Of a DNA stretch of 64,000 nucleotides, positions 13,535-48,138 are shown piece after piece. Numbering within the stretch: the first letter of the stretch is position 1; each line of letters opens with the position of its first letter. Where the stretch lies: positions 1,548,082-1,612,081 of the forward strand of contig CBDCTJ010000007.1 in NCBI GenBank assembly GCA_965222115.1. Direction: 5' to 3'. A program made the translations under genes and the position numbers. A model generated the notes under the pieces. It had not been told where the DNA came from, made no database searches, and was given only the letters and a program-made list of their open reading frames with translations. This DNA is from Planctomycetota bacterium. GTDB taxonomy: Bacteria > Planctomycetota > PLA2 > JAEUHO01.

Positions 13535-14016
13535 AACGCGTGGCTCCGAATGCGTGGAACCGCGTGCGCGCGGTTCGACTTCGCGCCCTCGCCGATTCTC
13601 CGAAGGCATTCGGCACATTGCTTTCGGAAGATGAAGCACGTCCACTGCCGGAGTGGCGAGCGCGGCTTGAGAATCCGAATGGCGCAACGTTCTTGGCGCA
13701 CACGGAAGAAGACGACATTGGCATTGTGACGATCATCGTCCATCCCGAGGACCACGAGTGCGGCCTGTTGTGTTCCATGTGGGTGGCGCCGGCAGTGCGC
13801 CGGTCGGGGCTCGGTGCGGCTTTGATTGACGCTGCGGTGGATTGGGCTCGCGGCAAGAGACTCGCGCGCGTTGTTCTAGGCGTTGGGGACTACAACCGAC
13901 CAGCCATTGCGCTCTACGAAAAAATGGGCTTTGTGCCCAACGGCGTCCTCAGTACGCTTCCATCGCCCCGCGAGCACATCACGGAGCATGAGCGTGAGTT
14001 GCGGCTGAAGGACTGA
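13522..14016 (+). CDS. GNAT family N-acetyltransferase
   Basis: Acetyl-CoA binding motif A pattern (VAPAVRRSGLGAALIDAAVDWAR) and a 164-aa GNAT fold. Its start overlaps the SRAP stop by 13 bp. Confidence 0.7.
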   Translation: MFGVERVAPNAWNRVRAVRLRALADSPKAFGTLLSEDEARPLPEWRARLENPNGATFLAHTEEDDIGIVTIIVHPEDHECGLLCSMWVAPAVRRSGLGAALIDAAVDWARGKRLARVVLGVGDYNRPAIALYEKMGFVPNGVLSTLPSPREHITEHERELRLKD

Positions 14017-14458
14017 GGCATTGGCGCGCATCCAAGAGTCCGCGTCTGCGTGCCTCTCGATAGATCGAGTGTGCAAGACTGTTAGACATGAGCGCTTTGT
14101 GGATTAGATGCGCCGCAAGCTTGGAGTATTCTCGACGTAAAATGGGATGCCCGGAACTGGCAAATTTGTAGTTATTCGATTGCTATCGCCGTTGGCGCTC
14201 AATGACACTGTCAACGATCCCGGAGGGATCACGGGTCAATAGCCCAGGGTGTAGCGCAAGCGTAGCGGCGCGGAACCCTGGGTTCACGTTCCCTCCCAAT
14301 CATCCCGCCCTGTATGGGCGGCGGAGACGTGCACGCATTCCCGGTACCTCACGTAGAACCAAAATCGTACGGCGCGAGCATTGTTGACTGTTCGTTCCAC
14401 GCATCTTGGCACGGGACATAGGTCACGAAGTTGGTGGGAACAAGCGCGGCACGGTATC

Positions 14459-14707
14459 ATGGGGACAGAGATGATGAGTGACGCCTGCCCCAATCTGAAA
14501 TACAAGCATGTCTATGTAGTAGTCCGAGTAGACATGGAGATGCTCCTTGTTGCAGAGGGCGATCTAGAGCGACAGCGTATTGAAGATTCCGTCGTAGTAA
14601 CTCGAGTATTCGAAGACTGGAACCTTGCGGTTGCGGAGGCCGATCGATTGAACGAACTCAATGGTGCCAAGGGCTGTGTGTACTTTGCGCGGGTCGGGCG
14701 CCTATGA
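14459..14707 (+). CDS. hypothetical small protein
   Basis: Small ORF (MGTEMMSDACPNLKYKHVYVVVRVD...) with no recognisable family. It is immediately followed by a copy of the GAGATACGGAGT...CAAATTCACAC repeat. Coding status uncertain. Confidence 0.25.
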   Translation: MGTEMMSDACPNLKYKHVYVVVRVDMEMLLVAEGDLERQRIEDSVVVTRVFEDWNLAVAEADRLNELNGAKGCVYFARVGRL

Positions 14708-14709
14708 GA

Positions 14710-15064
14710 GATACGGAGTCAAGATGCGGAGTCGGGACCAAATTCACACCTTTCTTGTCTTTCAAACGGGCCATGTACGAATCGTTAACAACACGTAAGC
14801 AGTAGGTGGATTGTTCAGTCGAAAAGGTGGCGCTGGAGGGGCATCGTACATGAGAGATCGCGTGACGCTGCGTAGACTTGTCTAAATGAGTTGCCAACAT
14901 GCCTCGTAACGGCGGCTTCGAGCCGACTGCGTCAGACCGCGCGCTCGCTCGATGGGCGTCGGCAAAGTGCTTGGCTTAAAGTCGGACGCGAGGGCATCAG
15001 CGCACGAATCTGAGCACAACAAGTTGCAGCACCAAATAGTGTGAATTTGGTCCTGGCACCGTAT
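14710..15064. mobile_element. MITE-like element with terminal inverted repeats
   Basis: A perfect 15-bp inverted repeat, GGACCAAATTCACAC (about 14735-14749) and GTGTGAATTTGGTCC (about 15038-15052). It extends imperfectly to GATACGG...GGACCAAATTCACAC on both sides. The arms flank about 290 bp of AT-richer non-coding DNA. A third, solo copy of the arm lies at about 25523-25553. Confidence 0.4.
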
Positions 15065-15126
15065 CCTCACTGAACTAGCGGTGAGGTTGGTCGTGAAAGC
15101 CCCAGCCGGGTGCGTCTATGAAGACA

Positions 15127-16305
15127 CTACCGGTCAAGCGCATCCGTCTGTTCTCGAATCAAGCGACGAATAGCCTGCTGATCTTGGTAGTTCTGTAGTG
15201 CAGCGCCCGGGGCGGTGAATGCCGGGAAAATCGGCGTGATAAGGGATGGCGAGCCCGAGAAACCGTGATCCGCGCCGAGAGATACTCCCCCGAGCTTTAG
15301 TTCCGCAGTTTTGTTCATTGCAGTCATGCTGAACTGTTCGCGAGACACGAGCTTCTCGAACGCGGCCGGATACAGCACTGTGAGTCTGTCGACCTTGGCG
15401 TTGATCGCTAGACCTTCTGTTTTGGCGACTGGGATCGTCAGCGGAAGATCGCCGACAACGATGTGCATGTGCCCATCCTGGTTCGGAATGCCCGCGTTGT
15501 TGGGCGTCACGAATGTAACTGTTCCGTGATAATGATGTCCGTTGTGTGGTTGCTCGCCTAAGGGAAATGAGACACTGGCGACGCGGACCATGAGTTTGGG
15601 CTTTGGCTTCGGAGACTCCCGATATCCAACGGTTTGGAGAGCGAGTTTGCGGAACGCGGCTAAGACCGTCGCATTGCCAGCTGGCACGTAGAACCACCAC
15701 GCGCCGTAGCGCTTGCATACGATTGCAGCTCCTGGACCCGGATGCACGCTGGAACGAACCACTGAATTCGGGACCTTTAGGTAATCCAGATATGCTTTGT
15801 AAACGTCCTTCGCATAGGGGGTGTCATTGACGACTGGGTCCGCAAGGATTTTCAGCTTGCTCGAAGTTTCGCCTGCGAGGCCAGCGGATGGATTGAATTT
15901 TTCAACTAGCGTGCGGCCTGCTTGGTAAGCAGTTGCAGTCGTCAACGAGTTCTCTGTCACTGTTGAGTCGTCGGCGGTTCCATCTTTATCAGTCATCACC
16001 GTCTTGCTTACGCCGGTTTGTGTCGTGGAGGGGCCTGGCCCGGATGTCCGCTCCCGCGCCCACGTGCTTCCTGCAGTTCCGCCTACGGTGTCTGTTGTGT
16101 CTGCGGAGACTTCCGTGTAGTCCACATGCACGATCGGGAGCCCGTTGTAGAGCCGAACCACGTTGTCGAACACTTGATGGGAATGCAGTTGCGTTATGGT
16201 GTTCCTGGCACCTGCATGGTCGTAGTGAACTCGCTTGACGGTTTGGCAAGCAAACAAGAAAGGCAACATGAAGCAAGCAGTTACGGGAAGAAGTCCTCGT
16301 CTCAT
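15127..16305 (-). CDS. hypothetical lipoprotein
   Basis: The start was re-assigned to MRRGLLPVTACFMLPFLFAC (signal peptide with a lipobox-like LFAC). The rest has no recognisable family. Confidence 0.45.
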   Translation of the reverse strand: MRRGLLPVTACFMLPFLFACQTVKRVHYDHAGARNTITQLHSHQVFDNVVRLYNGLPIVHVDYTEVSADTTDTVGGTAGSTWARERTSGPGPSTTQTGVSKTVMTDKDGTADDSTVTENSLTTATAYQAGRTLVEKFNPSAGLAGETSSKLKILADPVVNDTPYAKDVYKAYLDYLKVPNSVVRSSVHPGPGAAIVCKRYGAWWFYVPAGNATVLAAFRKLALQTVGYRESPKPKPKLMVRVASVSFPLGEQPHNGHHYHGTVTFVTPNNAGIPNQDGHMHIVVGDLPLTIPVAKTEGLAINAKVDRLTVLYPAAFEKLVSREQFSMTAMNKTAELKLGGVSLGADHGFSGSPSLITPIFPAFTAPGAALQNYQDQQAIRRLIREQTDALDR

Positions 16306-16949
16306 CTCCGTCCTCCTCAAGACACGCGAGAGGCTATGGGCCTCAGGTGCGCGGTCAAGTAATTGCACAGGTGGTAGAGATTTGGTACGGGTCTCGATCG
16401 CCTTTGAGACTCAAGAGGAAGGCGAGTAAATGCCTAAGCAGCCGGCGTCGAGGCGTAAGTCGCGTGGAGTTGACGTTGTTGTCGGGCACTGTGAACACCT
16501 TGACCAATTCACCGAGTAGCTCCTCGGGCGCAATTGTTTCGTCGCCGAGCCATTCACTCTCCGTGCGTACCGCGTCGCAGATGAAGAAGCCTGCCATGGC
16601 GTGTCCTCAAGACGACAGCCCATAGCTTCCCCCGCCAACACACGCCCCGGGACAGAACTAGGCGTCGTCGAAGGCAGCTCCTCAGCTGAAGATAGAAGAG
16701 TCATCGAGCCGGATAGTTGAGCGATTCCGAGAATTGTTGGCGGACGTCGCGCATGAATTACGAGATACTTAAAGGCATTTTTGATTTTCGAACACATTGT
16801 TGCAATAAGCGTCCGTGATTACCGACAGAATAACCAAGATAAGAGAGAGCAAGGGTTCGCCTTCAATGCATTGAATTCGGCTAGTAGGCGCCTTGTTCAA
16901 GGAGCTATTGGCGACTCGCCAATCTCCGCTTGATTTGATTGGCTGTGTC

Positions 16950-16984
16950 ACGCATGCGTATCTCCCACGTCACGATGTACGTGG
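16950..16984. promoter_or_regulatory. cluster of perfect palindromes in the AT-rich intergenic region upstream of the HEAT-RHS operon
   Basis: ACGCATGCGT, a 10-bp palindrome at about 16950-16959. CCACGT-N8-ACGTGG at about 16965-16984. TGTGCACA at about 16993-17000. All lie in a roughly 900-bp low-GC non-coding region. Confidence 0.2.
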
Positions 16985-17277
16985 CAAGAGTTGTGCACAT
17001 CAAGATCGACTTTCGCAGGGAAACGCGGATAGCGTGCGGGTGCGCGGCCTACGGAGAGCTACGAAGAAGATCTCGAATCGCGTAAGAGCAACAATCTTTG
17101 CATAACTTTCGCCGTGGAATTTCGCGCCACTCGAAACTCTCATCCTTACCGTCGATCTTGCGCAATCGAGAAGCACGCGCAAAGCGCCGTGTTCCTCCGG
17201 TAGCGCGAAACGCACACATGCGGGGGGTGCATCCACGCCGATTGTGGACCGGATGGCTTCCTCGGATTGGGGGCAAC

Positions 17278-18501
17278 ATGGCCAGAATAGGGAACAGCGA
17301 GCCAAAACGGGGCCGCGAAGTCGGCGATAGCTCGCGGATTCGCTTAGATCGTGCGCAGAAGGTGAGACGCGCCGCACCTGTCGTCGGTGTGATGATCGTC
17401 GCATTCCTAGCTGCTGTGATCACGGCAGCACCATCGAAATTTGAGAAGGACGTCTCGTTGCTGGCGAGCATCGATCCCGCCAAGCGACAAGCAGCAAGCG
17501 ATCGACTCGGCAAGGGTGACGCATCTCAAGTTACGAAGCTCTTAAACGAGCTGGATAAGAACCACTCTTCTGTTACTCGCGCCGGATTGGTTCGATCTGT
17601 ATCGAAGCTGCCGGTCGATGGTTCGCACGCGCGTCTAATCTCCGATTTGTTTGAACACGAAGATCCAAGCGCGCGAGCAAGCGCCGCCGAAGTGTTGCAG
17701 AGATCAACGGCTGCTCGTGACAAGGTGCTGGAGAAGCTCTTGGGCGTAGCCACGAATTCGGAAGAACTGACTGGAGTAAGAACGACGGCGATTCGCGCAC
17801 TTCGCGGCGCAGGCGGCAAAGCTGCGACAACTTTGGAGTCGTTGGCCGCTAGTGAATCATCCACATTGCGAAAGGCGGCGATCTCTTCTCTTGGTTTCGT
17901 TCCGACCACCGGACCATCCAAGTTGGCAGGTATTGCGACTGACGAAGGGCGTGAGCGCAAGGACAGAGAGCTTGCGATGCGTTCCCTCGGACTCGTTTCG
18001 GGATCGAATGCTTCATCGGCGTCTAGTCAGCTCAAGACCCTGGTGAAGAATTCGTCCGGATTTGTTCGTGAACACGCAACCGTTGCGTTGTCTGCCAGGG
18101 CGGAAAGTGGGAATACTACGACGTTTGCCACTCTTATGAAGGACAAGGATGCACGTGTTCGCTTAGAGGCACTTCGCGCGATTATCGATGCCAAGGCCGT
18201 CTCAGCTCAGAAGGGGACGATCAAGACGCTCTTGTCAGACTCAGATGTCCGCGTGCAAGTGCTTGCGTGTCGGTGTGCGGCATCGAGCAAGCCCTGGCCG
18301 CTGGTCGAAGTTCGCAGCACATTGATCTCGCTTCTCTCTTCATCGACGTTTCAAGTTCGCCACAAGGCTGCCATGGCGCTCGCCGCCTATGGTGACAAGG
18401 GTGGTCTCTCCCAAATGAATACAGACAAGTCCTCCAAGAACAAGATCGTCGCGGCTGAGGCCAAGGCGGCATACGACATCATCAATCAGCTTGGCAAGTA
18501 G
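17278..18501 (+). CDS. HEAT-repeat (PBS-lyase-like) protein with N-terminal TM/signal segment
   Basis: The start was re-assigned to MARIGNS... A hydrophobic segment (VVGVMIVAFLAAVITAA) is followed by repeated HEAT-like units (SVTRAGLVRSV, DPSARASAAEVL, FVREHATVALSA, DARVRLEALRAI, DSDVRVQVLACR, TFQVRHKAAMALA). It ends 30 bp before the RHS gene. Confidence 0.55.
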   Translation: MARIGNSEPKRGREVGDSSRIRLDRAQKVRRAAPVVGVMIVAFLAAVITAAPSKFEKDVSLLASIDPAKRQAASDRLGKGDASQVTKLLNELDKNHSSVTRAGLVRSVSKLPVDGSHARLISDLFEHEDPSARASAAEVLQRSTAARDKVLEKLLGVATNSEELTGVRTTAIRALRGAGGKAATTLESLAASESSTLRKAAISSLGFVPTTGPSKLAGIATDEGRERKDRELAMRSLGLVSGSNASSASSQLKTLVKNSSGFVREHATVALSARAESGNTTTFATLMKDKDARVRLEALRAIIDAKAVSAQKGTIKTLLSDSDVRVQVLACRCAASSKPWPLVEVRSTLISLLSSSTFQVRHKAAMALAAYGDKGGLSQMNTDKSSKNKIVAAEAKAAYDIINQLGK

Positions 18502-18530
18502 CATCGGAATCGGCAACGGGGAGTATTGAT

Positions 18531-21500
18531 ATGGCTCGCAAGCAAGAAGCGAAGAACGCAAAGACTCTAGGTCGCCAAGATTACGCGCGACCGTTTGTTC
18601 AACGTCCGTTGGGGTTGCTCCTGGTCGGCGTTTGTACCTACCTGGCTTCGATCGCAATGCTCTCTGGAGTACTGCGTCCTGATGCTGACGCTGCTCCTCC
18701 GCCCATGATCCCTTTGGGGGCGAATCTAAAAGACACTGCGATCACGTCGGACACACAAAGCAGTCTCAAGATGGGGTATGCCGTTGACCCTGGTGCAGGA
18801 GGCGTGCACGAGTTTGACCTCAGCTCTTCCTTGCCAACAAAGTTCATCGACTTGGGGCCTCCCAACCAAAATACGATCTCAAAGGTCGATATGAACGACA
18901 CCACCGGCGAGCTTGCCATGGGCAATGCAAACGGCGACGTGATGCGGATTGACCCATCTTCGAGCACCGTTACCACAGTAGCCACAATCTCAGGCGACGC
19001 GAAGGTCCTCATGGCGGATGAGAGTTCTCCTAGCACCGAGGCCTGGGCAACTGACGGCGCCACGAGTCAGTTGATGGAAATCAAGACTTCCGGAGCGACC
19101 TACGGTCAGGGCATGATGTCATTTCCCAATGGACCATTTGAGATGTCGGGAAAGCCTAGTCAGCCAGATTCAAACGTTTTCGCATTGGGGAAGGGGTCGG
19201 CAGAGATTGTTCGGTTTGACAGCGCGACTCTGACGTTCTATGACGACTCTTACGGTACCGCAGTTGTGAAGCCGACTGGGCTTGCAGTGGGCGATGGAGA
19301 CTATTGTTACGTGTCGGTTGAGAACGGAGCAGACAGCGAGCTGCTCCAAGTGGATACACGTGCCGCCACATTTGGATTCGTCACACCGATCTTGCACACG
19401 TTCACTGGAACCGCCGCAGTCGACGTTTCGATTGCCGGACCATGGGTGACTGTACTCCTGGAGGACTCGGGAACGAGCAGCACGGTTGCTCATGTCTTTG
19501 ATGTTGGAAATCCAGGCAGCACGCTTGAAGTCGGAACGGTAATGCTTCACGGCGGCCAACTTCCCTATGGTGGACTGACGACCTGGCTCGAAGATGGTGA
19601 GAGTTACGACGACTTGAATTTTCTCTACTCGGGCGCTACGCAAGATGTCGGGTATGTTCCGGGAACAGAGGTCATGGAGGATTGGAGCTATGGTCCTTCG
19701 ACCGTAGTCACAACCGCAACGAACAAGCCGATCATAACCAACGCGGCTTCCGGTGCGTTTGCGCAAGAGGCGCTGAACTGCACAGACTGCCCGTGCCCTC
19801 CCTTTGACGCCGAGGCACAGGGCATGATCCCCGGACCGACGCCAGATGCGCACGGGAGTACGGAGACTGGCGTATCCAACGCAGCCGCAAGCCCAGGAAG
19901 TGTCCAGTACAGCACCGGCGAAGAAGTGCTGACTCATAACCTGGTCACGTTTCCGGGCGTCGGCCTTGATCTGACGCTGAGCCTCACCTACCGATCAAGG
20001 AGAGACTACAAGCACCGCTACGGGAACAATTGGTTCTTCAATCACGACGTCCGAGTGCATCCAGAGACAAATGGTGATGTGACGTATCAAAGTCCGTATG
20101 GGCGACTGGATACGTACAAGACGATCGGCTCCGGGAGCTTCCAGTCGCCGGTGCATTACGATACTACCTTGGTTGTGCTGCCCGGCATCGGCCACCAAGT
20201 AACCGATCGCTTCGGCACAGTAAGCACATTCGATCTCCTCGGACAGCGCATTAGTCTGGCAGATCGATACCAGAATACGATTGCATACACGTGGCAAAAC
20301 GGGCTATTGACAGGGATCAGGGACACCCTCCTGCGGGACTACGTACTCAACTACGACGCCAACGCAAGGCTCTCAAGTATCGTGGACTACGGCGGTCGTA
20401 TTTGGACGTTCAACTATGACTACATGGGGAACCTTAGAACCATCAGTGCACATGGCTCAAACGGGGTCGCCGGCACGTTCTTCTCATACACCAGTAACGA
20501 TCCTCAGGTGAAGTTCCAGGGGAACCTCCTGCATGTCACGAATCCCAACGGTGAGCGGGCTCAAACGCTTGAGTATGACGAACACGATATGGTCGTGAGG
20601 GAGAAGCTGGGAGATGGTGAATACTTCTTTAGCTACGACACCAATCTTCAGCAGACAACCGTCATAGACAGAGTCGGTACCAAGACGCGGTGGACATTCG
20701 GCGCCTTTGCCGTTGCTACTGAAAAACGTATTTACAATCAGGGTATTCGCCCGAACGCGCCGGTCGGAAGCTGGGAAGACACGAAATGGGAAGTCGACCC
20801 CAACACCGGAATGGTGGTCACTGAGTCCTACTACGCAGGCGGGCGAACTGAGTTCATCTATGATAACAAACTAAACCTGACTAACGTTCGCCGCAAGTTG
20901 ATCGATACCGCTACGGATAGTTCTACCGATCTCGTTACGACATACGAATACGCCGTTCAGAAGTTTAATCAGCTGAAAGGGATTACCGATCCCATGGGCA
21001 ACTACACTGCCATGACGATCGATCTGAGCGGGAACACTATCTCTACTACGCGACCTACCGTGACGCAGCCCGTTTCGCAGACGGCGACGGAGGGCGCGAC
21101 ATTTGATACCCGAGGGCGGATCACATCCTCAACCGACTCCGAGGGGCGCCTCACGACGTTTACTTACTACAACACAGGTGTTCAGTTCGGCTATTTGTAT
21201 CAAGTCATCCGCGATCCAAGTGGACTCGCTCTCACGACGACGTTTGATTATGACCAGTACGGAAATGTGATCGCCGTAACCGATCCGCTAGGCAAGAAGA
21301 CGGAAATGACGGTGAACCTAGGAAACTACGTCACCGAGATCAAGGCGCCTGCACCGCTCAACTACCGAAAGAAGCTGAGTTACGACAAGAACGGGAATCT
21401 GACGCTTGTTGAGACGGAGAACATTGATAAGGACGGCGTACTTGACGCGACGACCCCCTGGATTGAAGAGAGCTACACCTACAACGAGCTGGGTTGGCGT

Positions 21501-24500
21501 CTATCGTCAACCAGGAGCCTCACCGCGACAGAGGCAGCCACCACGTCGTTTGAGTACGATTTTGAGGGACGAGTAGTCCGGGTGGCTGATCCGACCGGAA
21601 TTTGGACGAAGTTTCAGTATGACGAGCGGGGGTTCTTGTTCAAGATCAAGCGCGCGGTGCAGGATGCCCCGAACACAACAACGGTAACGACGCTCCATGA
21701 CGCTCGCGGCAATTTGATTAGCACGACTGACGCCGAAGGAAATACAACAGCCAGTATCTATGACAACTATGATCGCATTACTAGGCGAACGAACGCACTA
21801 GGAAACTATATAGCGTGGACGTATGACAAGAACGGGAACGTGTTGACTTCGGCTGCGTACGACGCATCCGCCGTTCTCCAGTCTCAGACGACCAATCACT
21901 TTGACGAGCGCGATCGAATTTGGAAGCGCGTGCGAAGCCGGTTTGGGCCGGGGCTTACGCCAAGTTATCCAACGATGACGATTCAGCACGATATGACGAA
22001 CCGTGTCACTGAGATCAGAGATCCACTCAACAACAAGACGACCTACTCGTACGACGCCGTAGGACGGCAAGTCTTGGTCCAAGACGCCATCGGAAATGAA
22101 ACCGAGTGGATTCTCGATGCGCGCGGGCAAGCTACAAAGATCAAGCGCAAAGACATTCCTACCGCCGGTGGATCGGAGACATTTGAGACGGAGTTCGTCT
22201 ATGACGTGCTCGGGCGCATGACTTCGCGTCGTGAGATCGATCGACTTAACGCATCCAATATTCTCACGACCAATTTTTCCTACGATAGTCGTGGGAATCT
22301 GACGTTCCGAGTTGACGCCGAGGGCAACCCGGTGCGTTGGACGTACGATCTGGCCAGCCGTCAGACAAGTTACGAGCGCGCGTTGGCAACGGGTACGGGT
22401 ATTGAGGACTTTACGAACAGCATTCTTGAGACGGCGACCTATGACGCGGCGGGTCGGCTTAAGACGATTTCCGATGACAACCTGAACACGACAATCTACG
22501 CGTACGACAGTCATGGGCGGATGCATCAGACGACGTTTGCCGACGCCAAGACGGTTTCGCTCACATTTGACAAGAACAACCTCGTAAAGACCCGTACGGA
22601 TCAAAACGGTACGGTTGTTACCAATTCGCGTGACGTTCTTGGCAGGCTGACCTCCCGATCGATTGCGAGGGCCAGCGGGGTCTTGGGAGATTCCTCAGAA
22701 GTCTACACTTACGACGCGCTCAATCGCGTTACGAAGGCGTGGGATTCAGACTATCAGGTGGTGTTCACTCGTGACAGCATGGGGAACCTTCTGTCGGAGA
22801 AGCAAGGATACTCGGTTGCCGGTCAGGAGAAGTGGAAGACTGTAACGTCTTCGTATACCGACGCGGGTTCTCGGAGCGTATTGAGTTATCCCAGCGGATT
22901 CATTGTTTCCTATCAGCGTGACGCGATTTACCGCATGACGATCATGACGGATGCGTTGGCGTCGGCAAATATCGCCACCTTCACGTTCCAGGGGGCGAAT
23001 CGGCTTGCTAAGACGACGAACCAAAACTCGACCACGACCGATCACGGCTACGATGGCTTTGCGCGACTCTCGCAACTTGATCACAAGAATGGTTCGAGCC
23101 AGAGTTTCCACATGTTTGATTATTTGTATGACAAAGTGCACAACCGGCGAATGGAGAAGAATTCGTTCAATTCCACCTGGATCAACGCGCTGCCCTCCGG
23201 CATTCAGCCGTTCCTAAATGGGAGAAACGGCAAGGGCGATGTCTATGCCTACGATATGGCCTATCGCATGGTGGACACGCGATATGACGTGACTAGTCCT
23301 GCGGCGGAGGTGGCCACGCCCGGTTCGCAAACCTACGTCACCAAGCAGATCTACACGCTTGATGGGCTAGGTAATCGTAGCCAGACACAACAGACGCCTT
23401 GGGGAGGCTCAAGTTCGACGACAACCTACACGTTCAACGCCATGAACGAGTACACGGCGATCGGAAGCACCTCGCGGACACACGACAGCAACGGCAGTCT
23501 GACGAATGATGGCACCCAGACGTATCACTATGACTATCAGAATCGTTTGATCGAGGTCAGGGCCGTTGGGCCGAGTACGCTTATCGCAAGGTATAAGTAC
23601 GATGCGCTGGGTCGGCGTGTAGAGAAGTACGTCGCGTCAGGAACGGCCACCACACGCTATGTGCTTGATGGCTCGGACATAGCCGAGGAGTACGACGGCG
23701 CGGACACTTGGGCAGCGCGATACTTCCATGAAGACCGCATTGACCATCCGCGGGCGATGGATCGTGCTGACATCTCGGATGTAGATGGGGATAGCGATAC
23801 GAGCGAAGTGCTACGCTTTCATTATCACCAGAATGCACTGGGGAGCGTAAGCGAGGTTTCCGCTCCCGGTGGCGGTGTGGTTGAGTGGGTGACGTATGAC
23901 GTCTATGGAAAGGCGACTGTTCGCAACTCGGCTGGAACGACGCAGGGCTCAAGCTTTGTCGGCAACCCGTTCCTGTTCACGGGGCGAGAGTTCGACGCCG
24001 AATCGGGAATGTATCACTATCGCGCGAGAGCGTATGACCCCGAGGCGGGGAGATTCTTGCAGAGAGACCCGTTGGGGTATGTGGATGGACTCAACTTGCT
24101 AGCCTACGTTGCTAGCAACCCTGTAACACTCAATGACCCGTTGGGGCAGGCGATTCAGCTGCACAGTGGGGTAGGTGGAGGTGCACCATTCAGCCATTTT
24201 AGTGCCGTCGGTTGGGGGACAAAACCCGTAAGTGAGGTTATTGGAAGTATCGGAAGCAGTCTACAAGGAGGATTTGAGACGCTCGGCAATTTGATGGCAG
24301 ATGTGGGCGAAGAGATGGCGAGCAGCGTATCGTTGGTCTTGAGGCCGGTCACAGAACTCGGGAATGGCATCAATAGCGCTCTTGGAATAGATGATGAACT
24401 CGCGGCTGCTGAGGAGTACGTAGGTAAGAAAGTTGAGGCGGGAATGAACTGGGCGGGCAGTAAAGTAGGTCTATCTGGGCGAGCACTAGGTGGACTTACG

Positions 24501-24944
24501 GGTGCCTTTGGCGGAGGTACGGCTCTGGCCAGGCGGTTAAGGAGTCGTGGCGCAAGGTCAGCTCCCTCACCAGTCGACTTTGTGGATGATCCTACTCCTC
24601 CGACGACTGTCGTGACGACTGGGACGAGCGCTGCTAAGAAGGCAAAGTGCCCAGTTGTAGTAAAAGAGAGGGTGAGCAAAGGCGCGGATGGCGCAACGTC
24701 GAGGCATATCATTGAGAAGGACGCTGGCGGAAACACTAATTCAAAGACTCATGTCGTAGAAAAGGATGGTGAAATCATCCACCAGCATCAAGAGCATGTA
24801 GGTAAGGAAGGGAGTACTCGGAGATTTCCCGATTCATGGACGGGGACGAAAAGTGTGAATGCGCGCGATCACGTAAAGACTGGCCCAAGAATGCGACCCG
24901 ATCCATCCAGGCCCGATGGGAAAGAGGGTCCCCATGGGAGATGA
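18531..24944 (+). CDS. RHS/YD-repeat polymorphic toxin (2137 aa) with an uncharacterised C-terminal toxin domain
   Basis: N-terminal signal anchor (LLLVGVCTYLASIAMLSGV). Dozens of YD repeats (YTYDALNRVT, YAYDSHGRM, FEYDFEGRVV...). The RHS core ends with the canonical sequence ...YRARAYDPEAGRFLQRDPLGYVDGLNLLAYVASNPVTLNDPLGQ (DPxGL aspartyl-autoprotease motif). A ~265-aa C-terminal extension follows. Confidence 0.9.
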   Translation: MARKQEAKNAKTLGRQDYARPFVQRPLGLLLVGVCTYLASIAMLSGVLRPDADAAPPPMIPLGANLKDTAITSDTQSSLKMGYAVDPGAGGVHEFDLSSSLPTKFIDLGPPNQNTISKVDMNDTTGELAMGNANGDVMRIDPSSSTVTTVATISGDAKVLMADESSPSTEAWATDGATSQLMEIKTSGATYGQGMMSFPNGPFEMSGKPSQPDSNVFALGKGSAEIVRFDSATLTFYDDSYGTAVVKPTGLAVGDGDYCYVSVENGADSELLQVDTRAATFGFVTPILHTFTGTAAVDVSIAGPWVTVLLEDSGTSSTVAHVFDVGNPGSTLEVGTVMLHGGQLPYGGLTTWLEDGESYDDLNFLYSGATQDVGYVPGTEVMEDWSYGPSTVVTTATNKPIITNAASGAFAQEALNCTDCPCPPFDAEAQGMIPGPTPDAHGSTETGVSNAAASPGSVQYSTGEEVLTHNLVTFPGVGLDLTLSLTYRSRRDYKHRYGNNWFFNHDVRVHPETNGDVTYQSPYGRLDTYKTIGSGSFQSPVHYDTTLVVLPGIGHQVTDRFGTVSTFDLLGQRISLADRYQNTIAYTWQNGLLTGIRDTLLRDYVLNYDANARLSSIVDYGGRIWTFNYDYMGNLRTISAHGSNGVAGTFFSYTSNDPQVKFQGNLLHVTNPNGERAQTLEYDEHDMVVREKLGDGEYFFSYDTNLQQTTVIDRVGTKTRWTFGAFAVATEKRIYNQGIRPNAPVGSWEDTKWEVDPNTGMVVTESYYAGGRTEFIYDNKLNLTNVRRKLIDTATDSSTDLVTTYEYAVQKFNQLKGITDPMGNYTAMTIDLSGNTISTTRPTVTQPVSQTATEGATFDTRGRITSSTDSEGRLTTFTYYNTGVQFGYLYQVIRDPSGLALTTTFDYDQYGNVIAVTDPLGKKTEMTVNLGNYVTEIKAPAPLNYRKKLSYDKNGNLTLVETENIDKDGVLDATTPWIEESYTYNELGWRLSSTRSLTATEAATTSFEYDFEGRVVRVADPTGIWTKFQYDERGFLFKIKRAVQDAPNTTTVTTLHDARGNLISTTDAEGNTTASIYDNYDRITRRTNALGNYIAWTYDKNGNVLTSAAYDASAVLQSQTTNHFDERDRIWKRVRSRFGPGLTPSYPTMTIQHDMTNRVTEIRDPLNNKTTYSYDAVGRQVLVQDAIGNETEWILDARGQATKIKRKDIPTAGGSETFETEFVYDVLGRMTSRREIDRLNASNILTTNFSYDSRGNLTFRVDAEGNPVRWTYDLASRQTSYERALATGTGIEDFTNSILETATYDAAGRLKTISDDNLNTTIYAYDSHGRMHQTTFADAKTVSLTFDKNNLVKTRTDQNGTVVTNSRDVLGRLTSRSIARASGVLGDSSEVYTYDALNRVTKAWDSDYQVVFTRDSMGNLLSEKQGYSVAGQEKWKTVTSSYTDAGSRSVLSYPSGFIVSYQRDAIYRMTIMTDALASANIATFTFQGANRLAKTTNQNSTTTDHGYDGFARLSQLDHKNGSSQSFHMFDYLYDKVHNRRMEKNSFNSTWINALPSGIQPFLNGRNGKGDVYAYDMAYRMVDTRYDVTSPAAEVATPGSQTYVTKQIYTLDGLGNRSQTQQTPWGGSSSTTTYTFNAMNEYTAIGSTSRTHDSNGSLTNDGTQTYHYDYQNRLIEVRAVGPSTLIARYKYDALGRRVEKYVASGTATTRYVLDGSDIAEEYDGADTWAARYFHEDRIDHPRAMDRADISDVDGDSDTSEVLRFHYHQNALGSVSEVSAPGGGVVEWVTYDVYGKATVRNSAGTTQGSSFVGNPFLFTGREFDAESGMYHYRARAYDPEAGRFLQRDPLGYVDGLNLLAYVASNPVTLNDPLGQAIQLHSGVGGGAPFSHFSAVGWGTKPVSEVIGSIGSSLQGGFETLGNLMADVGEEMASSVSLVLRPVTELGNGINSALGIDDELAAAEEYVGKKVEAGMNWAGSKVGLSGRALGGLTGAFGGGTALARRLRSRGARSAPSPVDFVDDPTPPTTVVTTGTSAAKKAKCPVVVKERVSKGADGATSRHIIEKDAGGNTNSKTHVVEKDGEIIHQHQEHVGKEGSTRRFPDSWTGTKSVNARDHVKTGPRMRPDPSRPDGKEGPHGR

Positions 24945-25521
24945 TAAGAAGTTGGTTTCGCGAGAAGAGGAGCAGACAAGAGTGGAAGGTTGTGAAACGC
25001 TGCTGCGCCACTTGGTTCAGATCGCAATGGGACTGGCAAGAGTACCTCGGGCCGGCGATGTATATATGCAACGGATCTTGAATTGCGCCATAGGATGGCT
25101 CAACGATGAGAGTGGTCTTAGGGGCATCCGCGATGCGTTTCTTGAATTGTATGCAGATCTTCATTCGAGCACTGACAGCCGAAAGCCGTACGAAAAATTC
25201 ATGAATGCTGTGCTCCATGACCCGGCCGCCGAGGTCAGGGCACCTCTGGAGTTTGCTACGTACTATCTCAGTGCCGCGTGCTCTGATACAGAGATGGACT
25301 TGACGACCCGTTTTGAATTACTAGATGCAATCTTGTGGGATTCGGTAATTCCAAACACTCAAGATTCAGTTCGAACGCACTGCGATGATTTTCGATCGTT
25401 GGTTGAAGCTGCAAGCCACGACTTGGAAGATGGATTCGAGATCGCGGACATGCGCTTAGACGAATTACTGAGAGAAGGACGAAATCTCTTAGCTGTCATA
25501 CGAGAACTTGCTAGCTCGTAG
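24934..25521 (+). CDS. putative cognate immunity protein of the RHS toxin
   Basis: 196-aa predicted all-alpha ORF whose start (MGDDKK...) overlaps the RHS stop. This position is typical for RHS immunity genes. No recognisable family. Confidence 0.45.
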   Translation: MGDDKKLVSREEEQTRVEGCETLLRHLVQIAMGLARVPRAGDVYMQRILNCAIGWLNDESGLRGIRDAFLELYADLHSSTDSRKPYEKFMNAVLHDPAAEVRAPLEFATYYLSAACSDTEMDLTTRFELLDAILWDSVIPNTQDSVRTHCDDFRSLVEAASHDLEDGFEIADMRLDELLREGRNLLAVIRELASS

Positions 25522-25522
25522 A

Positions 25523-25553
25523 GATACGGAGTACGGGCAAAATCCACACTTTT
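25523..25553. repeat. solo copy of the GAGATACGGAGT...CAAAATCCACAC repeat (same family as the 14710-15064 element arms)
   Basis: GAGATACGGAGTACGGGCAAAATCCACAC lies immediately after the immunity-gene stop. It aligns with both arms of the element at 14710-15064. Confidence 0.4.
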
Positions 25554-25662
25554 CGGGGAAGTGCCGGATTCATTGCCAGAGGCCGAGCAAGGACTAGGTC
25601 CTCATCCTTCGACAACAAGAACGGCGCCTGAGCGCATCTCCCCGCCACGGTAAACTAGCACC

Positions 25663-26511
25663 ATGCCCGGTCGCCCACTGCCCCACCGCTTGCGTCGCCT
25701 GACGTGGATGGCCTGTGTTCCCGTAGCGGTCGCCGTGATCCTATTGACCATTGATTTCGTGGAAGACAAGCAGCGCGCAACACCGGCGCCATTCACCCGG
25801 ATTCGACCTCAAGCGCGAACACCAGTAACGGTAATGGCGCCCACCGACAACACGTTGCTCCGTCTCGTTGAACAGATGTATCCAGATTCACCCAGAGCAA
25901 ACGCGCCAATAAGCAATCAAGAATCTGCACCGACCATTCCACCCCTCCGCGCCTTCGCCATCTCCATGTGGATTCACGGTGATTCTGGAACCACATTGAC
26001 ATTGCGTTGCAAAGATCCAGCCCACGACATCGCCTATTGCATTGGCACCGACAACCCTGATCGAGACGTGAAGTTGGTAGGAGTGGATGTGGACGACAAA
26101 CTTGCGCGCTTTACTGTCAGTCGCGGCGATGAGCAGTACACCTTCGAGTTCGATCGAAGCCGTGAGTTCCACAGCCCCGTCATTCGGTTCAGTTCGCCTG
26201 GAACAGTGCTAGGCGCTCAAGGCTATCACTCCCAAGTGGCCGCAAGCGCCAAGCACCCAGACCTCAAGGCGGTTCCTTACTTCGATAACCGCGGCAAGTG
26301 CATTGGCATGCGTGTCACCGGACTTCGCTCGGATTCGTCATGGGCGAACCGTGGGATTGAGCGTGGTGACGTGCTACTCGCGGCAGATGACATCGCGATG
26401 CACCAGCCTGCCGTGTTTCGCAAGCGAGTGAAGGGCGGATGGGCGCCAAAGAGTCTCAAGATCGGGAAGATCGAAGGTGGCGGGCTTCGTGAGGTAGAGC
26501 TGGGCGGGTAG
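25663..26511 (+). CDS. PDZ-domain membrane protein (GspC-like architecture)
   Basis: N-terminal TM segment (MACVPVAVAVILLTI). C-terminal PDZ-like segment (GMRVTGLRSDSSWANRGIERGDVLLAADDIAM). Confidence 0.45.
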   Translation: MPGRPLPHRLRRLTWMACVPVAVAVILLTIDFVEDKQRATPAPFTRIRPQARTPVTVMAPTDNTLLRLVEQMYPDSPRANAPISNQESAPTIPPLRAFAISMWIHGDSGTTLTLRCKDPAHDIAYCIGTDNPDRDVKLVGVDVDDKLARFTVSRGDEQYTFEFDRSREFHSPVIRFSSPGTVLGAQGYHSQVAASAKHPDLKAVPYFDNRGKCIGMRVTGLRSDSSWANRGIERGDVLLAADDIAMHQPAVFRKRVKGGWAPKSLKIGKIEGGGLREVELGG

Positions 26512-26512
26512 T

Positions 26513-26588
26513 TGGTAGGGGCAGAGGGATTCGAACCCCCGACCAATGGATTAAAAGTCCACTGCTCTACCGACTGAGCTATGCCCCC
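26513..26588 (-). tRNA. tRNA-Lys (anticodon UUU)
   Basis: The reverse complement reads GGGGGCATAGCTCAGTCGGTAGAGCAGTGGACTTTTAATCCATTGGTCGGGGGTTCGAATCCCTCTGCCCCTACCA. A cloverleaf can be drawn with a 7-bp acceptor stem, D-arm GCTC/GAGC, anticodon loop CTTTTAA (UUU), T-arm GGGGG-TTCGAAT-CCCTC and an encoded CCA. Coordinates are +/-1. Confidence 0.85.
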
Positions 26589-34491: not shown

Positions 34492-36306
34492 ATGCGACGC
34501 TACCGCAGCCTTGGGGCCCTTGCGCTTCCGACCGTACTCGTCTTGCTTTGCATGCCGCCCGCGCATGCCAAAGAGGGGAACCGTCCGTACTTGATGGGCC
34601 TTCCTTGGGAGAGCGCCGTTGTTCGTGGCATCGATCGTCAAGACCGAGATCGACGCCGCTTGCAGGGTGCCGGCTTCGACTCGATGGTGCGTAAGTACGC
34701 CACCGCTGCGCGCCGGGATCCCAGCCTGGCCAACCTCTACTTGCTGGGCCGAGGCAACGCCCTTCGCTATGTCTGGCGCAGGAATCGAATCAAGAACGAG
34801 AAGAACGTCTTGGAGCGCACGAATCACGAACGGCGGGCACCTCGCGATTACTCCGATGCCGTTGCCGCCTATCGCGATGTTATGAAGAAGGAGCCGCGCT
34901 GCTACTTCGCCTATCACGATCTCGGCATGCTTGAACTTGCGCGCGCCAAACCCAATCGTCGGCGCGCGTTTGACTACCTTGTGCAGGCGCTGCACATCAA
35001 CGATCGTTATATAGACGCTCGCCGCAAGCTGATTTTGATGTATTTGGAAGGCAAGCAGTTTCCCGAAGCGATTCCACTGCTCGTGCGGTTGATTCAACAA
35101 GAGCCCGCAGATCGTATCGCGCGCGTTCAATTGATCAATGCGTATGCGAAAGTCGGTCGCTATGACGTGGCGCGATCACATTTGTCACCCTTGCTACAAA
35201 CCGAACCCAACAATCCGGTGTTTCGCGACCTGTCCGCGCAACTCGATTCCAAGGTGGGACGCGCCGACCAGGCAATCGCAACGTACCGCGGTCTTGCAAA
35301 AGAGAATCCCACGTCCCCGGCGCCCTTCCTTGGCATCCTTCGCATCATTGAAAGCAAGCGTACCGCTAAGCAGCAATTCAAATTGGAAGACTACCATTTT
35401 GCATTGAGCGGCATCATGCGTATTGAGCGAGATCCTGCGCGACGCGCGGCCCTGCAAAGGGATCTCGAAAAGCTCGAACGCGCCATGGCAGCGCCCAAGA
35501 CGCCGCGCGATCCCAATAAACCGCCATCGGAGTCAGAGATCATCGCTGTGTTGGATCGTGGGACATTGGAACAGCGTCGTCAGGCGCTGCTCTACGTGTT
35601 GACGCGTGAGGAGAATCCGTCTCCCGCCATCATGAAAGCCGTCATGCGCCGTATTGCCGCGCGAACAGAGAGCGATCCGGCGAGCCGCGTGATTGCGGTG
35701 CGCACGCTGGGGCGCCGCGGCGGTTCAGCGCTAATTCCCCTCATTCGATTGGCTCTGCGGGATGCAAATGAACACGTGCGCAGTCAAGCCGCCGACACCT
35801 TGACCCGGATCGCCGAGCGCGACGGTCGCGTCAGTCGGTCCGTCATGATCATTCTGGGCCGTCATGCGTTGGCGCCCGAGATTGAGTTTCCCGCTGCGGT
35901 CCGCCTGCACATTCTGCGGTTGGCGGAAGCCCACTTGGATGTGGATTCGAAGAGTTCGGACCGTGAGCACCGCGAGGCCTTCCGCACGTGGTGGCGCACG
36001 CCCCGAGTCGAGGACTTGATCATTCAGGGTCTGGATGGCTATGACCGTCTGGGTGATCGCTTTGCCGAGCAGATACTTGGACCGTTCGTCCGCTCGCCTT
36101 CCTTCTTGGTGTTCAAGACGGCCTGGCGCGCGCTTGAGGCCCATCGCACGGTCATGATGGCAGATGGTGGCGCGAAGGCCGGAGGTGCGACACGTTTGGC
36201 GTGGTTTCGCGCGATGCCTCGTTACGTTGAGTCGTCGTGCGTCCCCGCCAATCACAACACCGGGCGTACGGCGTTGGAGGCATGGCTTGCGCGTGCCCCT
36301 CGTTGA
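34492..36306 (+). CDS. secreted TPR- and HEAT-repeat protein
   Basis: Signal peptide (ALALPTVLVLLCMPPAHA). TPR-like repeats in the N-terminal half. HEAT/PBS-lyase-like repeats in the C-terminal half (DPASRVIAVRTLGRRG, DANEHVRSQAADTLTRI). Confidence 0.55.
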   Translation: MRRYRSLGALALPTVLVLLCMPPAHAKEGNRPYLMGLPWESAVVRGIDRQDRDRRRLQGAGFDSMVRKYATAARRDPSLANLYLLGRGNALRYVWRRNRIKNEKNVLERTNHERRAPRDYSDAVAAYRDVMKKEPRCYFAYHDLGMLELARAKPNRRRAFDYLVQALHINDRYIDARRKLILMYLEGKQFPEAIPLLVRLIQQEPADRIARVQLINAYAKVGRYDVARSHLSPLLQTEPNNPVFRDLSAQLDSKVGRADQAIATYRGLAKENPTSPAPFLGILRIIESKRTAKQQFKLEDYHFALSGIMRIERDPARRAALQRDLEKLERAMAAPKTPRDPNKPPSESEIIAVLDRGTLEQRRQALLYVLTREENPSPAIMKAVMRRIAARTESDPASRVIAVRTLGRRGGSALIPLIRLALRDANEHVRSQAADTLTRIAERDGRVSRSVMIILGRHALAPEIEFPAAVRLHILRLAEAHLDVDSKSSDREHREAFRTWWRTPRVEDLIIQGLDGYDRLGDRFAEQILGPFVRSPSFLVFKTAWRALEAHRTVMMADGGAKAGGATRLAWFRAMPRYVESSCVPANHNTGRTALEAWLARAPR

Positions 36307-42116: not shown

Positions 42117-42520
42117 GCGTTTGGGTCTCCTGGCACCCCGAAGCCTCGCGGGGGCAGTTAATGGCGCAGGAAGGTTAACCGCTGGCGCAGCCCCCTCGAT
42201 GGTTTTCCCTGTAACCTCCCCAAACTTGCGGCGTTCCAGGGGTAGGGCGCCGACGCGCGACCGGATCCAAGGAGCCTCGGATCCAGCGAGCATCGGAAGC
42301 TGCGATGTCCTCGTGGCGGCGCCCGCCTATCAAACCATTCAAGCCATGGTCTGTTCGGGGTCATGGTCCAATGAGGACGCGCCCTTGTGAGGCGAGACGT
42401 TTTTTGGATCCAATCGTTTTGTTCGATCAAAGCAATTGCGGGTCCATTGGCCGGAGTCGGACGTTGATTCGAATCGTGCGAGAGATCTTGAGAACCCCAG
42501 ATGCTCCGCGTCTACGTTCC

Positions 42521-43747: not shown

Positions 43748-43756
43748 CGCGAAACG

Positions 43757-44761: not shown

Positions 44762-44800
44762 CTTCCTCATGCGCCACAGAAACCAGGTATTTTTGGCGCA

Positions 44801-47908: not shown

Positions 47909-48138
47909 CGTCAAGACCTCCATGCGCCCAATAAACCAGGCTTTCTTGACGCAATTGTCACCGTGCGCCACAAAAGCCTGGCATTTGTGGCGCGTACCCC
48001 GTGGAGAGGGGGAAGTTGCGGAGAAGTGGGATAGGTGTTTGACGGATTGGGCGGGCAACTCTTAGGGACTGGTTGGGTTTCAAAACGCAACATCGAACGG
48101 CGAACCGGCCGCGACGATCCCGCGAAAGGAACAGTCCC

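Follow-up and report, generated by a model that had tools for sequence, protein, structure and literature searches.

The stretch of DNA analysed here, called the window throughout, comprises 64 kb (64,000 nucleotides) of a contig from a Planctomycetota bacterium, and positions are counted from its first letter unless another locus is named. The window is ordinary chromosome, with haem biosynthesis genes, purC, aroA, mreB, mreC, lnt and genes for many HEAT- and TPR-repeat proteins. Four consecutive open reading frames (ORFs) on its plus strand, at 17098-26511, encode in this order a HEAT-repeat protein, a large RHS protein, a small product of 195 aa and a protein with a transmembrane (TM) helix and a PDZ domain. 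We consider it highly probable that these four genes form a genuine RHS polymorphic toxin-immunity locus on a Planctomycetota chromosome, equipped with accessory genes specific to its clade. This reading draws on the gene structure, the domains, the boundaries of an exchanged cassette, the reuse of the C-terminal toxin domain (the tip) across lineages, its coupling to an acidic ORF and the linkage of the HEAT, RHS and PDZ genes, all of which were observed directly.

An earlier prediction made from the letters of this region (hereafter the original prediction) had described a HEAT-repeat gene, an RHS toxin gene and an overlapping candidate immunity gene. The 407-, 2137-, 195- and 282-aa products are recorded exactly as we read them, each as a singleton cluster from one NCBI/ENA contig, and the description of the locus is thus confirmed with minor corrections of coordinates. 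A HEAT gene is indeed present upstream of a 2137-aa RHS gene with a complete core, as seen with Pfam and NCBIfam models, and its stop lies 29 nt, not 30 nt, ahead of the RHS start. The ORF in the region of the toxin stop is also there, but it most likely encodes 195 aa rather than 196 aa, starting from the ATG at 24934 and ending at 25521 rather than 25553. The features of the locus are given in Table 1.

Table 1. Features of the RHS locus, in window coordinates.
Feature	Position	Strand	Evidence
HEAT accessory gene 1, 407 aa	17278..18501	+	Pfam HEAT_2 3.4e-21
RHS polymorphic toxin gene (very probable), 2137 aa	18531..24944	+	ORF, Pfam RHS_repeat and DUF6531, NCBIfam YD_repeat_2x and Rhs_assc_core
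Predicted N-terminal export signal, residues 1 to ~55	18531..18695	+	hydropathy, conserved AxA-type site
Seven-bladed YVTN-type beta-propeller, residues ~59-376	18705..19658	+	profile against PDB, AlphaFold2, Foldseek
DUF6531, residues 458-529, start of RHS shell	19902..20117	+	Pfam PF20148 3.2e-10
Rhs-associated core domain, residues 1789-1873	23895..24149	+	TIGR03696 2.1e-22, model positions 1-76/76
Variable cassette: last 20 core codons, linker, toxin core, immunity gene	24089..25520	+	blastn against L001
Gly/Ala/Ser-rich linker, residues 1874-2046, candidate pre-toxin/membrane-entry segment	24150..24668	+	composition, GxxxG-type motifs
Conserved toxin core (candidate), residues 2047-2103	24669..24839	+	seven metagenome loci, 45-60% identity
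Pro/Arg/Gly-rich C-terminal tail, residues 2104-2137, and stop codon	24840..24944	+	AlphaFold2 pLDDT <50; unaligned in family
Candidate immunity gene, 195 aa	24934..25521	+	11-nt overlap with toxin gene, acidic, inside swapped cassette
Conserved right flank of cassette: intergenic region and first 41 PDZ codons	25521 to about 25785	+	91% identity to L001
Accessory gene 2, GspC-like TM-PDZ protein, 282 aa	25663..26511	+	homology to PDZ genes of related loci
tRNA-Lys(TTT)	26513..26588	-	ARAGORN; Rfam tRNA 76.9 bits

The RHS repeats of the 2137-aa protein match Pfam RHS_repeat over 11 stretches (4.2e-51) and TIGR01643 (1.8e-39), and the Rhs-associated core model is matched over its full length. 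The core ends with the motifs DPLGYVDG (nt 24066-24089) and PVTLNDPLGQ, the NDPLGQ part of which lies at 24132-24149; both motifs had been described, and only the coordinates assigned to them, about 24090-24150, had to be corrected. The aspartyl autoprotease motifs are intact, and cleavage releasing residues 1874-2137 is predicted. These 264 residues beyond the core (about 265 had been estimated) begin with the Gly/Ala/Ser-rich linker of about 170 aa that had been foreseen, found here from residue 1874 to about 2046, which contains GxxxG and small-xxx-small motifs and has positive hydropathy.

Searching with the core retrieved a tight clade, in which the closest relative, P0006, has 83% core identity, P0007 has 70% and P0008-P0014 have 48-54%. 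P0007 is a paralogue encoded outside the window on the same contig and carries a different tip. The full-length members of the clade share a basic N-terminus with one hydrophobic segment, an N-terminal domain of about 400 aa, DUF6531 and the RHS shell; P0009, which has no N-terminal part, is outside this set. In an alignment of eight clade members (A1), the last invariant column is G1872, and conservation beyond it is zero. A genome scan with the single RHS protein yielded nothing, and a profile scan with A1 over one genome per species yielded 22 loci, all in Planctomycetota metagenome-assembled genomes (MAGs), including Planctomycetia and Phycisphaerales; some of the Planctomycetota MAGs carry six to eight RHS copies each. 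The negative results of a word-indexed protein search for the 264-aa tail and the N-terminal 460 aa were false and were therefore not used, as the same collection holds P0006, with an 80%-identical N-terminal domain, and homologues of the tip (the P0130 cluster). Gly/Ala/Thr-rich queries seem to swamp the word filter of that search.

The exchange of the C-terminal part was resolved by blastn of the window against locus L001, which encodes P0006. DNA identity is 77% between window 17203-24088 and L001 8670-15576, there is none between window 24089-25520 and L001 15577-16753, and it is 91% between window 25521-25784 and L001 16754-17017. The left break falls directly after the DPLGYVDG codons, and the right break is the last base of the stop codon of the 195-aa ORF. 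The tip and the 195-aa ORF are thus one replaced cassette, 24089-25520, with boundaries at base resolution. The G+C content (GC) is 52.3% in the cassette and 49.7% in the candidate immunity ORF, compared with 58.8% in the window. Close homologues therefore vary in their C-termini beyond the core, as seen in A1 after G1872 and in the DNA break at 24088, and the downstream gene varies together with the tip, since the ORF at 24934-25521 overlaps the toxin stop and lies wholly within the replaced cassette. L001 has an overlapping ORF of its own, of 186 aa, which is unrelated to the 195-aa ORF of the window. The view that the locus encodes an RHS polymorphic toxin is borne out by these comparisons: the relatives keep the HEAT gene and the RHS core, and carry unrelated tips and unrelated downstream ORFs.

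Other comparisons within the clade concern the same process. P0006, which comes from another sample, and the paralogue P0007 are 97-98% identical over core residues 1429-1727 and 31-63% identical in the N-terminal half, indicating that the 3' core was recombined or transferred recently. Loci L012-L021 (in MFD05684.bin.2.230, MFD05442.bin.2.37 and other MAGs) contain as many as six core-end fragments of RHS genes arrayed in tandem, which look like stores of orphan tip and immunity cassettes. To the right of the cassette, the intergenic region 25521-25662 is about 93% identical to L001, against 77% for the coding core; it matches no Rfam family and its folding energy is ordinary (z = -0.4). This region may serve as an arm for recombination or contain a regulatory element that was not recognised; between 16300 and 26800, no sigma-70-like promoter was detected. 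When the tips of eight sister proteins (P0006-P0013) were compared with Pfam, none passed a toxin cut-off, and only P0012 gave a weak match, to Ntox35 (E = 0.02). The RHS clade looks like a reservoir of unclassified toxin domains.

The tip of the window protein had been described as unassignable to any toxin family, and this holds: neither the tail searched alone nor the alignment of its family (A6) gave a match at E values up to 10 in Pfam, NCBIfam or PDB sequences. No match was found in plasmids, phages or viral contigs either. A metagenome scan with residues 2013-2137 detected seven loci, with 45-60% identity to the core of the tip and scores of 52-85 bits, in which the same C-terminal domain occurs on three architectures and on contigs of 38-63% GC. 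In L033 (38% GC), the tip is carried by an RHS protein of Bacteroidota type with a signal peptide and DUF6443. In L030-L032 (47% GC), it is preceded by an RHS core end and a hydrophobic Gly/Ala linker in a 325-aa lipoprotein-like protein, and in L027-L029 (59-63% GC), it forms the end of a stand-alone protein of about 169 aa with a signal peptide. In L028, the tip homologue and its partner are directly followed by a second ORF pair (1247-2184), the first ORF of which weakly matches Tox-SHH (HNH/EndoVII, E = 5e-4); the stand-alone tip homologue thus lies in a multi-cassette toxin array. Recurrence of the tip domain on other delivery scaffolds, proposed earlier as the test for a polymorphic toxin, is therefore observed in metagenomes.

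Alignment A6 sets a core of 57 residues, 2047-2103 of the window protein. Its invariant residues are R2047, G2051, D2053, G2054, S2057, E2062, D2064, S2071, T2073, H2074, V2076, D2079, G2080, H2084, Q2085, H2086, H2089, R2097, F2099, P2100, D2101 and W2103. As far as sequence comparison can tell, this core is a small toxin-domain family absent from all libraries searched here. The basic, His-rich segment of about 95 aa in the original prediction thus has to be redrawn: it is rich in His, four of which are invariant, but the conserved unit is 57 aa long and near neutral. In the AlphaFold2 model of the tail, built from the single sequence, confidence is restricted to the core (pLDDT 66-90), which is modelled as a three-strand beta-meander followed by an R-x-FPD-x-W loop; the linker appears as low-confidence helices, and the last 34 residues are disordered (pLDDT <50). 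A Foldseek search of this low-confidence model against the PDB gave nothing below E = 0.3, the matches being generic beta-meanders. Going by the strand register, E2062 and D2064 on strand 1, H2074 on strand 2 and H2084 and H2086 on strand 3 would share one face of the sheet. Beta-sheets classically bind metal through an HxH pair and a third His from the adjacent strand. That the tip is a metal-dependent nuclease or phosphoesterase is a tentative proposal, one that we regard as a real possibility and would not wager on.

The 195-aa ORF, the candidate immunity gene, has two possible starts; the most likely is the ATG at 24934, which is preceded by GAAAGAGGG and gives an 11-nt overlap with the RHS stop. 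Its product has a pI of 4.6 and a net charge of -16, and contains no TM segment, hydrophobic segment or export signal. A small acidic ORF (pI 4.2-5.1) adjoins the homologues of the tip as well. In L027 and L028, the GTG start of this partner ORF overlaps the toxin TGA by 4 nt; in L030-L032, the overlap is 11 nt, the same as in the window; and in L033, the partner begins 6 nt past the toxin stop. The contig of L029 ends inside the toxin ORF, so that the position of the partner is visible in the other loci. The sequences of these partners agree far less: the 195-aa ORF and the partner in L028 can be aligned over their full length with 21% identity (pairwise E = 3e-4). Since position and properties of the partner are kept while sequence similarity is mostly undetectable, the immunity gene diverges fast or is replaced, which is common among immunity proteins (Zhang 2012, PMC3482391). 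The 195-aa ORF is therefore an immunity candidate, coupled to the toxin in position and properties, with a fast-diverging or replaced sequence. The claim that an overlapping downstream ORF is kept with the toxin thus stands for position and acidity, and for sequence it has the one pair given above. A cytoplasmic immunity protein implies that the target of the toxin is cytoplasmic.

These data also bear on an alternative in which the Gly/Ala/Ser-rich segment 1874-2046 is itself the toxin, a glycine-zipper pore-former like the C-terminus of Pseudomonas aeruginosa Tse5, and the His-rich end is an accessory or targeting part. The GxxxG and small-xxx-small motifs and the positive hydropathy of the linker would fit, as would three long helices given by AlphaFold2 at low confidence, a weak Collagen_mid match (E = 0.006) and the hydrophobic Gly/Ala-rich stretches that precede the tip in L030 and L033 too. 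However, the linkers of the window, L030 and L033 are similar in composition and not homologous, in contrast to the 45-60% identity seen in the 57-aa core. The stand-alone homologue in L027-L029 lacks a linker of this kind but retains the coupled ORF, and hydropathy in the tail stays below TM-like values in all 19-residue stretches. Proteins that give immunity to membrane pore-formers usually sit in the membrane themselves, and the immunity candidates have no TM segment. We therefore regard a pore-forming linker as improbable, and retain the 57-aa core as the candidate toxin.

At the other end of the RHS protein, the N-terminus consists of a basic n-region, a 22-residue hydrophobic segment and an AxA-type site (DADA/A). 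A54 is invariant and AxA-like motifs stand at the same place in 8/8 clade members, which makes a cleavable signal peptide likelier than an anchor. The n-region, the single hydrophobic segment and the AxA site speak for a signal peptide as the only trafficking determinant, but the h-region of 22 residues is long for one, so that this assignment is a tentative one. The N-terminus, which had been read as a signal anchor and not of PAAR or VgrG type, is indeed of neither type, and it is more likely a long cleavable signal peptide, judging from the family-wide AxA site. Behind the signal lies a seven-bladed beta-propeller, which is an addition to the earlier description. A profile of this domain (A3) matches the YVTN propeller 1L0Q in the PDB (E = 1.4e-17), and its AlphaFold2 model from an eight-sequence alignment (pTM 0.70) has 28 strands with pLDDT of 75-89; the top Foldseek matches of the model are seven-bladed propellers of Gbeta/WD40 type (E ~1e-10, TM-score 0.65-0.73).

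Two further genes are linked to the RHS gene. The HEAT protein has one N-terminal hydrophobic helix (hydropathy peak at residues 28-38) followed by HEAT repeats, and is predicted to face the periplasm. A HEAT gene stands beside the RHS gene in every full-length locus: in L001 it is in the same position with 79.6% identity, and in L002-L007, L011 and L022 it is directly upstream of the RHS gene with 28-33% identity. The HEAT gene thus holds its place as a linked accessory gene, its synteny being kept across loci with unrelated tips. Further large HEAT- or TPR-repeat proteins are encoded in the window at 34492-36306, 36343-38358 and 42305-48058. Since the HEAT fold is abundant in this genome, a HEAT match alone says little, and the link to RHS rests on synteny.

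A further member of the module, absent from the original prediction, is the TM-PDZ gene (25663-26511). In L002 (three copies), L003 and L004, the gene just ahead of the HEAT gene encodes a homologue of about 290 aa (blastp 7e-13 to 4e-29), and tblastn located the gene also at L005-L007, L011 and L022. The gene order is HEAT, RHS, cassette, PDZ in the window and L001, and PDZ, HEAT, RHS elsewhere. In L001, an IS21-type element (IstA and IstB, 17210-19535) follows the first 41 codons of the PDZ homologue; as homology to the window ends at this element, the L001 copy is truncated. The PDZ-HEAT-RHS trio was found at no fewer than nine loci in at least five Planctomycetota MAGs, and only in MAGs of this phylum. 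The more distant RHS genes P0018, P0021 and P0074 (the planctomycete Singulisphaera) have neither a HEAT nor a PDZ neighbour, so the trio is specific to this clade. Nothing on the trio or on the tip domain was found in the full-text literature.

The PDZ protein consists of an N-terminal TM helix, a conserved beta-rich middle domain and a C-terminal PDZ domain. Its profile matches the DegP PDZ2 domain (4e-11). The NCBIfam model GspC_delta is matched by 6/6 members (best 1.3e-9, far below the 150-bit cut-off) and a second GspC model by 5/6 members, and the GspC models rank above DegP-type models.

For delivery, no type VI secretion system (T6SS), PAAR, prePAAR, VgrG or phage-tail-like family was found in the RHS protein or in 34 other ORFs scanned in the 64-kb window, and no T6SS genes are among the called neighbours of related loci. 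Features of Tc toxins were sought as well: there is no SpvB match and no TcA-sized gene in the window, and the propeller is N-terminal and of YVTN type. The statement that no T6SS genes lie nearby thus survives, and with it the preference for Sec-type over T6SS-type delivery, the export route being a predicted one. In principle, the protein could be delivered by a machine whose genes lie elsewhere in the genome, be it a T6SS or one of another contractile or Tc type, with the HEAT and PDZ proteins as loading chaperones. Most characterised Gram-negative RHS toxins are T6SS cargo according to the literature, and the inspected 64 kb belong to a contig that measures 3.07 Mb or more. Yet neither the protein nor its vicinity offers a PAAR, prePAAR, VgrG-binding, SpvB or TcA-type element, related loci have no T6SS genes among their called neighbours, the Sec-type N-terminus would put the RHS protein in the periplasm, beyond the reach of a cytoplasmic T6SS loader, and both accessory proteins are predicted to face the periplasm. 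Delivery by such a machine is very improbable, and Sec-dependent export remains the preferred route.

It could further be supposed that the protein is no weapon but a teneurin-like surface or periplasmic protein for adhesion or signalling, with a non-toxic variable tail and a coincidental downstream ORF. A membrane or signal segment, a propeller, a YD shell and a C-terminal domain do resemble teneurins, Pfam TEN_YD-shell matches the clade, 0/8 sister tips pass a Pfam toxin cut-off and no delivery machine is encoded nearby. Such a protein would not explain, however, why tip and ORF were exchanged precisely together, why the ORF is translationally coupled, or why the tip domain recurs on unrelated secreted proteins with a small acidic ORF, once beside a Tox-SHH cassette; orphan cassette arrays in related genomes and intact autoproteolysis motifs also argue for a toxin. 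We consider a non-weapon function highly unlikely and keep to the toxin-immunity locus. That immunity comes from the HEAT protein, as it does from HEAT repeats for some planctomycete Tox-REase-7 toxins, and that the 195-aa ORF is unrelated is hardly credible. HEAT repeats are listed among immunity proteins, planctomycetes included (Zhang et al. 2012, PMC3482391), and the HEAT and RHS genes are closely linked; but the HEAT protein stays homologous (79.6% in L001, 28-33% in others) while the tips differ across loci, its gene is outside the swapped cassette whereas the 195-aa ORF was swapped together with the tip, and its N-terminal hydrophobic helix puts it outside the cytoplasm.

The results suggest the following mechanism. 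The RHS protein would be exported by Sec via its long N-terminal signal peptide and would fold in the periplasm into the seven-bladed propeller, DUF6531 and a YD-repeat cage. The aspartyl-protease motifs of the cage would cut off the last 264 residues, which would be kept enclosed as cargo; both the enclosure of the C-terminal region by the shell and its cleavage by aspartyl motifs are taken from established RHS/TcC biochemistry. After Sec export, the periplasm-facing HEAT and GspC-like proteins may handle the cage, which they would hand over to a conduit in the outer membrane or keep at the envelope; the periplasmic location of all three large proteins is deduced from the positive-inside rule. 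That the accessory pair serves export by a secretin-type route is possible but rather doubtful. The toxic unit would be the 57-residue beta-meander domain with its invariant cluster of E2062, D2064, H2074, H2084, H2086 and H2089, whose family is carried in other phyla on further scaffolds likely to be exported by Sec, and our best guess for its activity would be a metal-dependent hydrolase of nucleic acid or another phosphoester. It would most likely act in the cytoplasm of the target cell, because the partner protein is cytoplasmic and acidic, and the 195-aa protein would neutralise toxin entering from sibling cells. Exchange of cassettes would occur through recombination in the conserved sequences on either side, the 3' part of the core and the downstream stretch.

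Several observations weigh against parts of this picture. Autocleavage, toxicity, immunity, enzymatic activity and the roles of the accessory proteins are inferred. As to the tip, the 57-aa core is near neutral and not basic, which weakens the analogy to nucleases; it shows no enzyme-like similarity (nothing below E = 0.3 in the Foldseek search of the low-confidence model), and a 57-residue domain could act by binding and not by catalysis. As to immunity, the remaining pairs of immunity candidates beside tip homologues have no detectable relation, and an exhaustive HMMER search of the 195-aa ORF against 1.84 billion representative proteins found no relative; the other match of that search, the 4807-aa acidic repeat protein P0002, was judged from its sequence to be a compositional artefact. 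The choice between a cleaved signal and an anchor at the RHS N-terminus is one of sequence reading. All matches of the PDZ protein to GspC are far below curated cut-offs, the likeness being one of PDZ domain and overall architecture, and no sequence similarity connects its middle domain with GspC-HR or PilP structures in the PDB. No secretin, type II secretion system (T2SS) gene or gsp operon was found among the ORFs scanned in the window. Finally, the PDZ gene stands after the cassette here and not before the HEAT gene, so that co-function at this locus is deduced from the other loci.

The surroundings of the module show a lower GC, 0.52-0.57 in about 14000-25500 compared with 0.58-0.61 in the flanks. 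In this stretch, between a GNAT gene and the module, a 413-aa lipoprotein-like ORF (LPFLFAC) lies on the minus strand at 15127-16368; it has no match in Pfam or PDB. At the right edge of the stretch, the 3' end of tRNA-Lys(TTT) abuts the stop of the PDZ gene and faces the module. The low-GC stretch and the tRNA-Lys hint at an island at a tRNA, for which neither an att-like repeat of the tRNA 3' end nor an integrase family in the flanking ORFs scanned was found.

As a further step, the trio could be a Planctomycetota-specific, T6SS-independent RHS route in which a dedicated GspC-like protein and a periplasmic HEAT protein hand the Sec-exported cage to a secretin-type conduit or display it at the surface, and the 57-residue domain with its His/Glu/Asp cluster could be a minimal enzymatic toxin of new fold, mobile between phyla on different scaffolds; we regard this combined proposal as speculative and on the whole unlikely. 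To our knowledge, the exit of RHS toxins that have no PAAR or VgrG from diderm cells is poorly understood, and the interbacterial weaponry of Planctomycetota has been almost unstudied. The trio, in which all full-length RHS genes of the clade have the same two partners predicted to face the periplasm, one of them GspC-like, provides a testable handle on T6SS-independent RHS export in diderms. One more RHS tip that belongs to no family is unsurprising, given that 0/8 sister tips pass a Pfam toxin cut-off. The 57-aa domain, found in three lineages or more, nevertheless ranks with the smallest candidate toxin modules and matches no domain model or structure searched here, which makes it a good candidate for a new activity. 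Even if assays of toxicity or immunity were negative, a clean cassette replacement with base-level boundaries would be left.

Among known systems, the Sec/T2SS class of polymorphic toxins (Zhang et al. 2012, Biol Direct 7:18, PMC3482391, Table 1) has been reported in planctomycetes, with no signature neighbour genes. The locus resembles this class in having a probable signal peptide, a propeller and RHS repeats for presentation, a variable toxin, a downstream candidate immunity gene and cassette recombination. It differs in that this clade has two neighbour genes, HEAT and the GspC-like TM-PDZ, and in that the tip matches none of the Pfam toxin models, Tox- and Ntox- families included. With the T6SS Rhs effectors of Enterobacter cloacae, Serratia, P. 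aeruginosa (Tse5) and Acinetobacter baumannii (Tse15) it shares the YD cage, the DPxG…PxxxxDPxG autoprotease, the enclosed variable toxin with an immunity gene beside it, the orphan cassettes and the recombination where the core ends. Unlike them, it has a Sec-type N-terminus and an N-terminal propeller, and no PAAR, prePAAR or clade domain, Eag/DUF1795/DUF2169 chaperone or VgrG. WapA of Bacillus subtilis and Streptococcus suis is, as predicted for the present protein, a Sec-exported YD/RHS protein with a polymorphic toxin end and a downstream immunity gene, and is T6SS-independent. WapA, however, is attached to the cell wall of a monoderm and has neither the trio with HEAT and PDZ nor an N-terminal propeller, and the diderm planctomycete host would need an outer-membrane step.

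The combination of a propeller and a YD shell around a C-terminal toxin-like domain is also known from teneurins and the TcB-TcC cocoon, and TEN_YD-shell matches the clade; but in those proteins the propeller is of NHL or integrin-like type and elsewhere in the protein, and the present locus has no TcA partner, SpvB domain, EGF repeats or Tox-GHH domain. The PDZ protein, for its part, is like GspC of the T2SS in length (about 280-310 aa), N-terminal TM helix, beta-rich middle and C-terminal PDZ, and GspC models are its best matches; it differs from GspC in scores far below the equivalog cut-offs, in having no similarity to GspC-HR, and in the linkage of its gene to RHS and not to gspD-M operons. 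Set beside these systems, the locus is of a known kind, and what is new in it is the accessory pair with the GspC-like protein, the N-terminal YVTN propeller and the 57-aa domain family.

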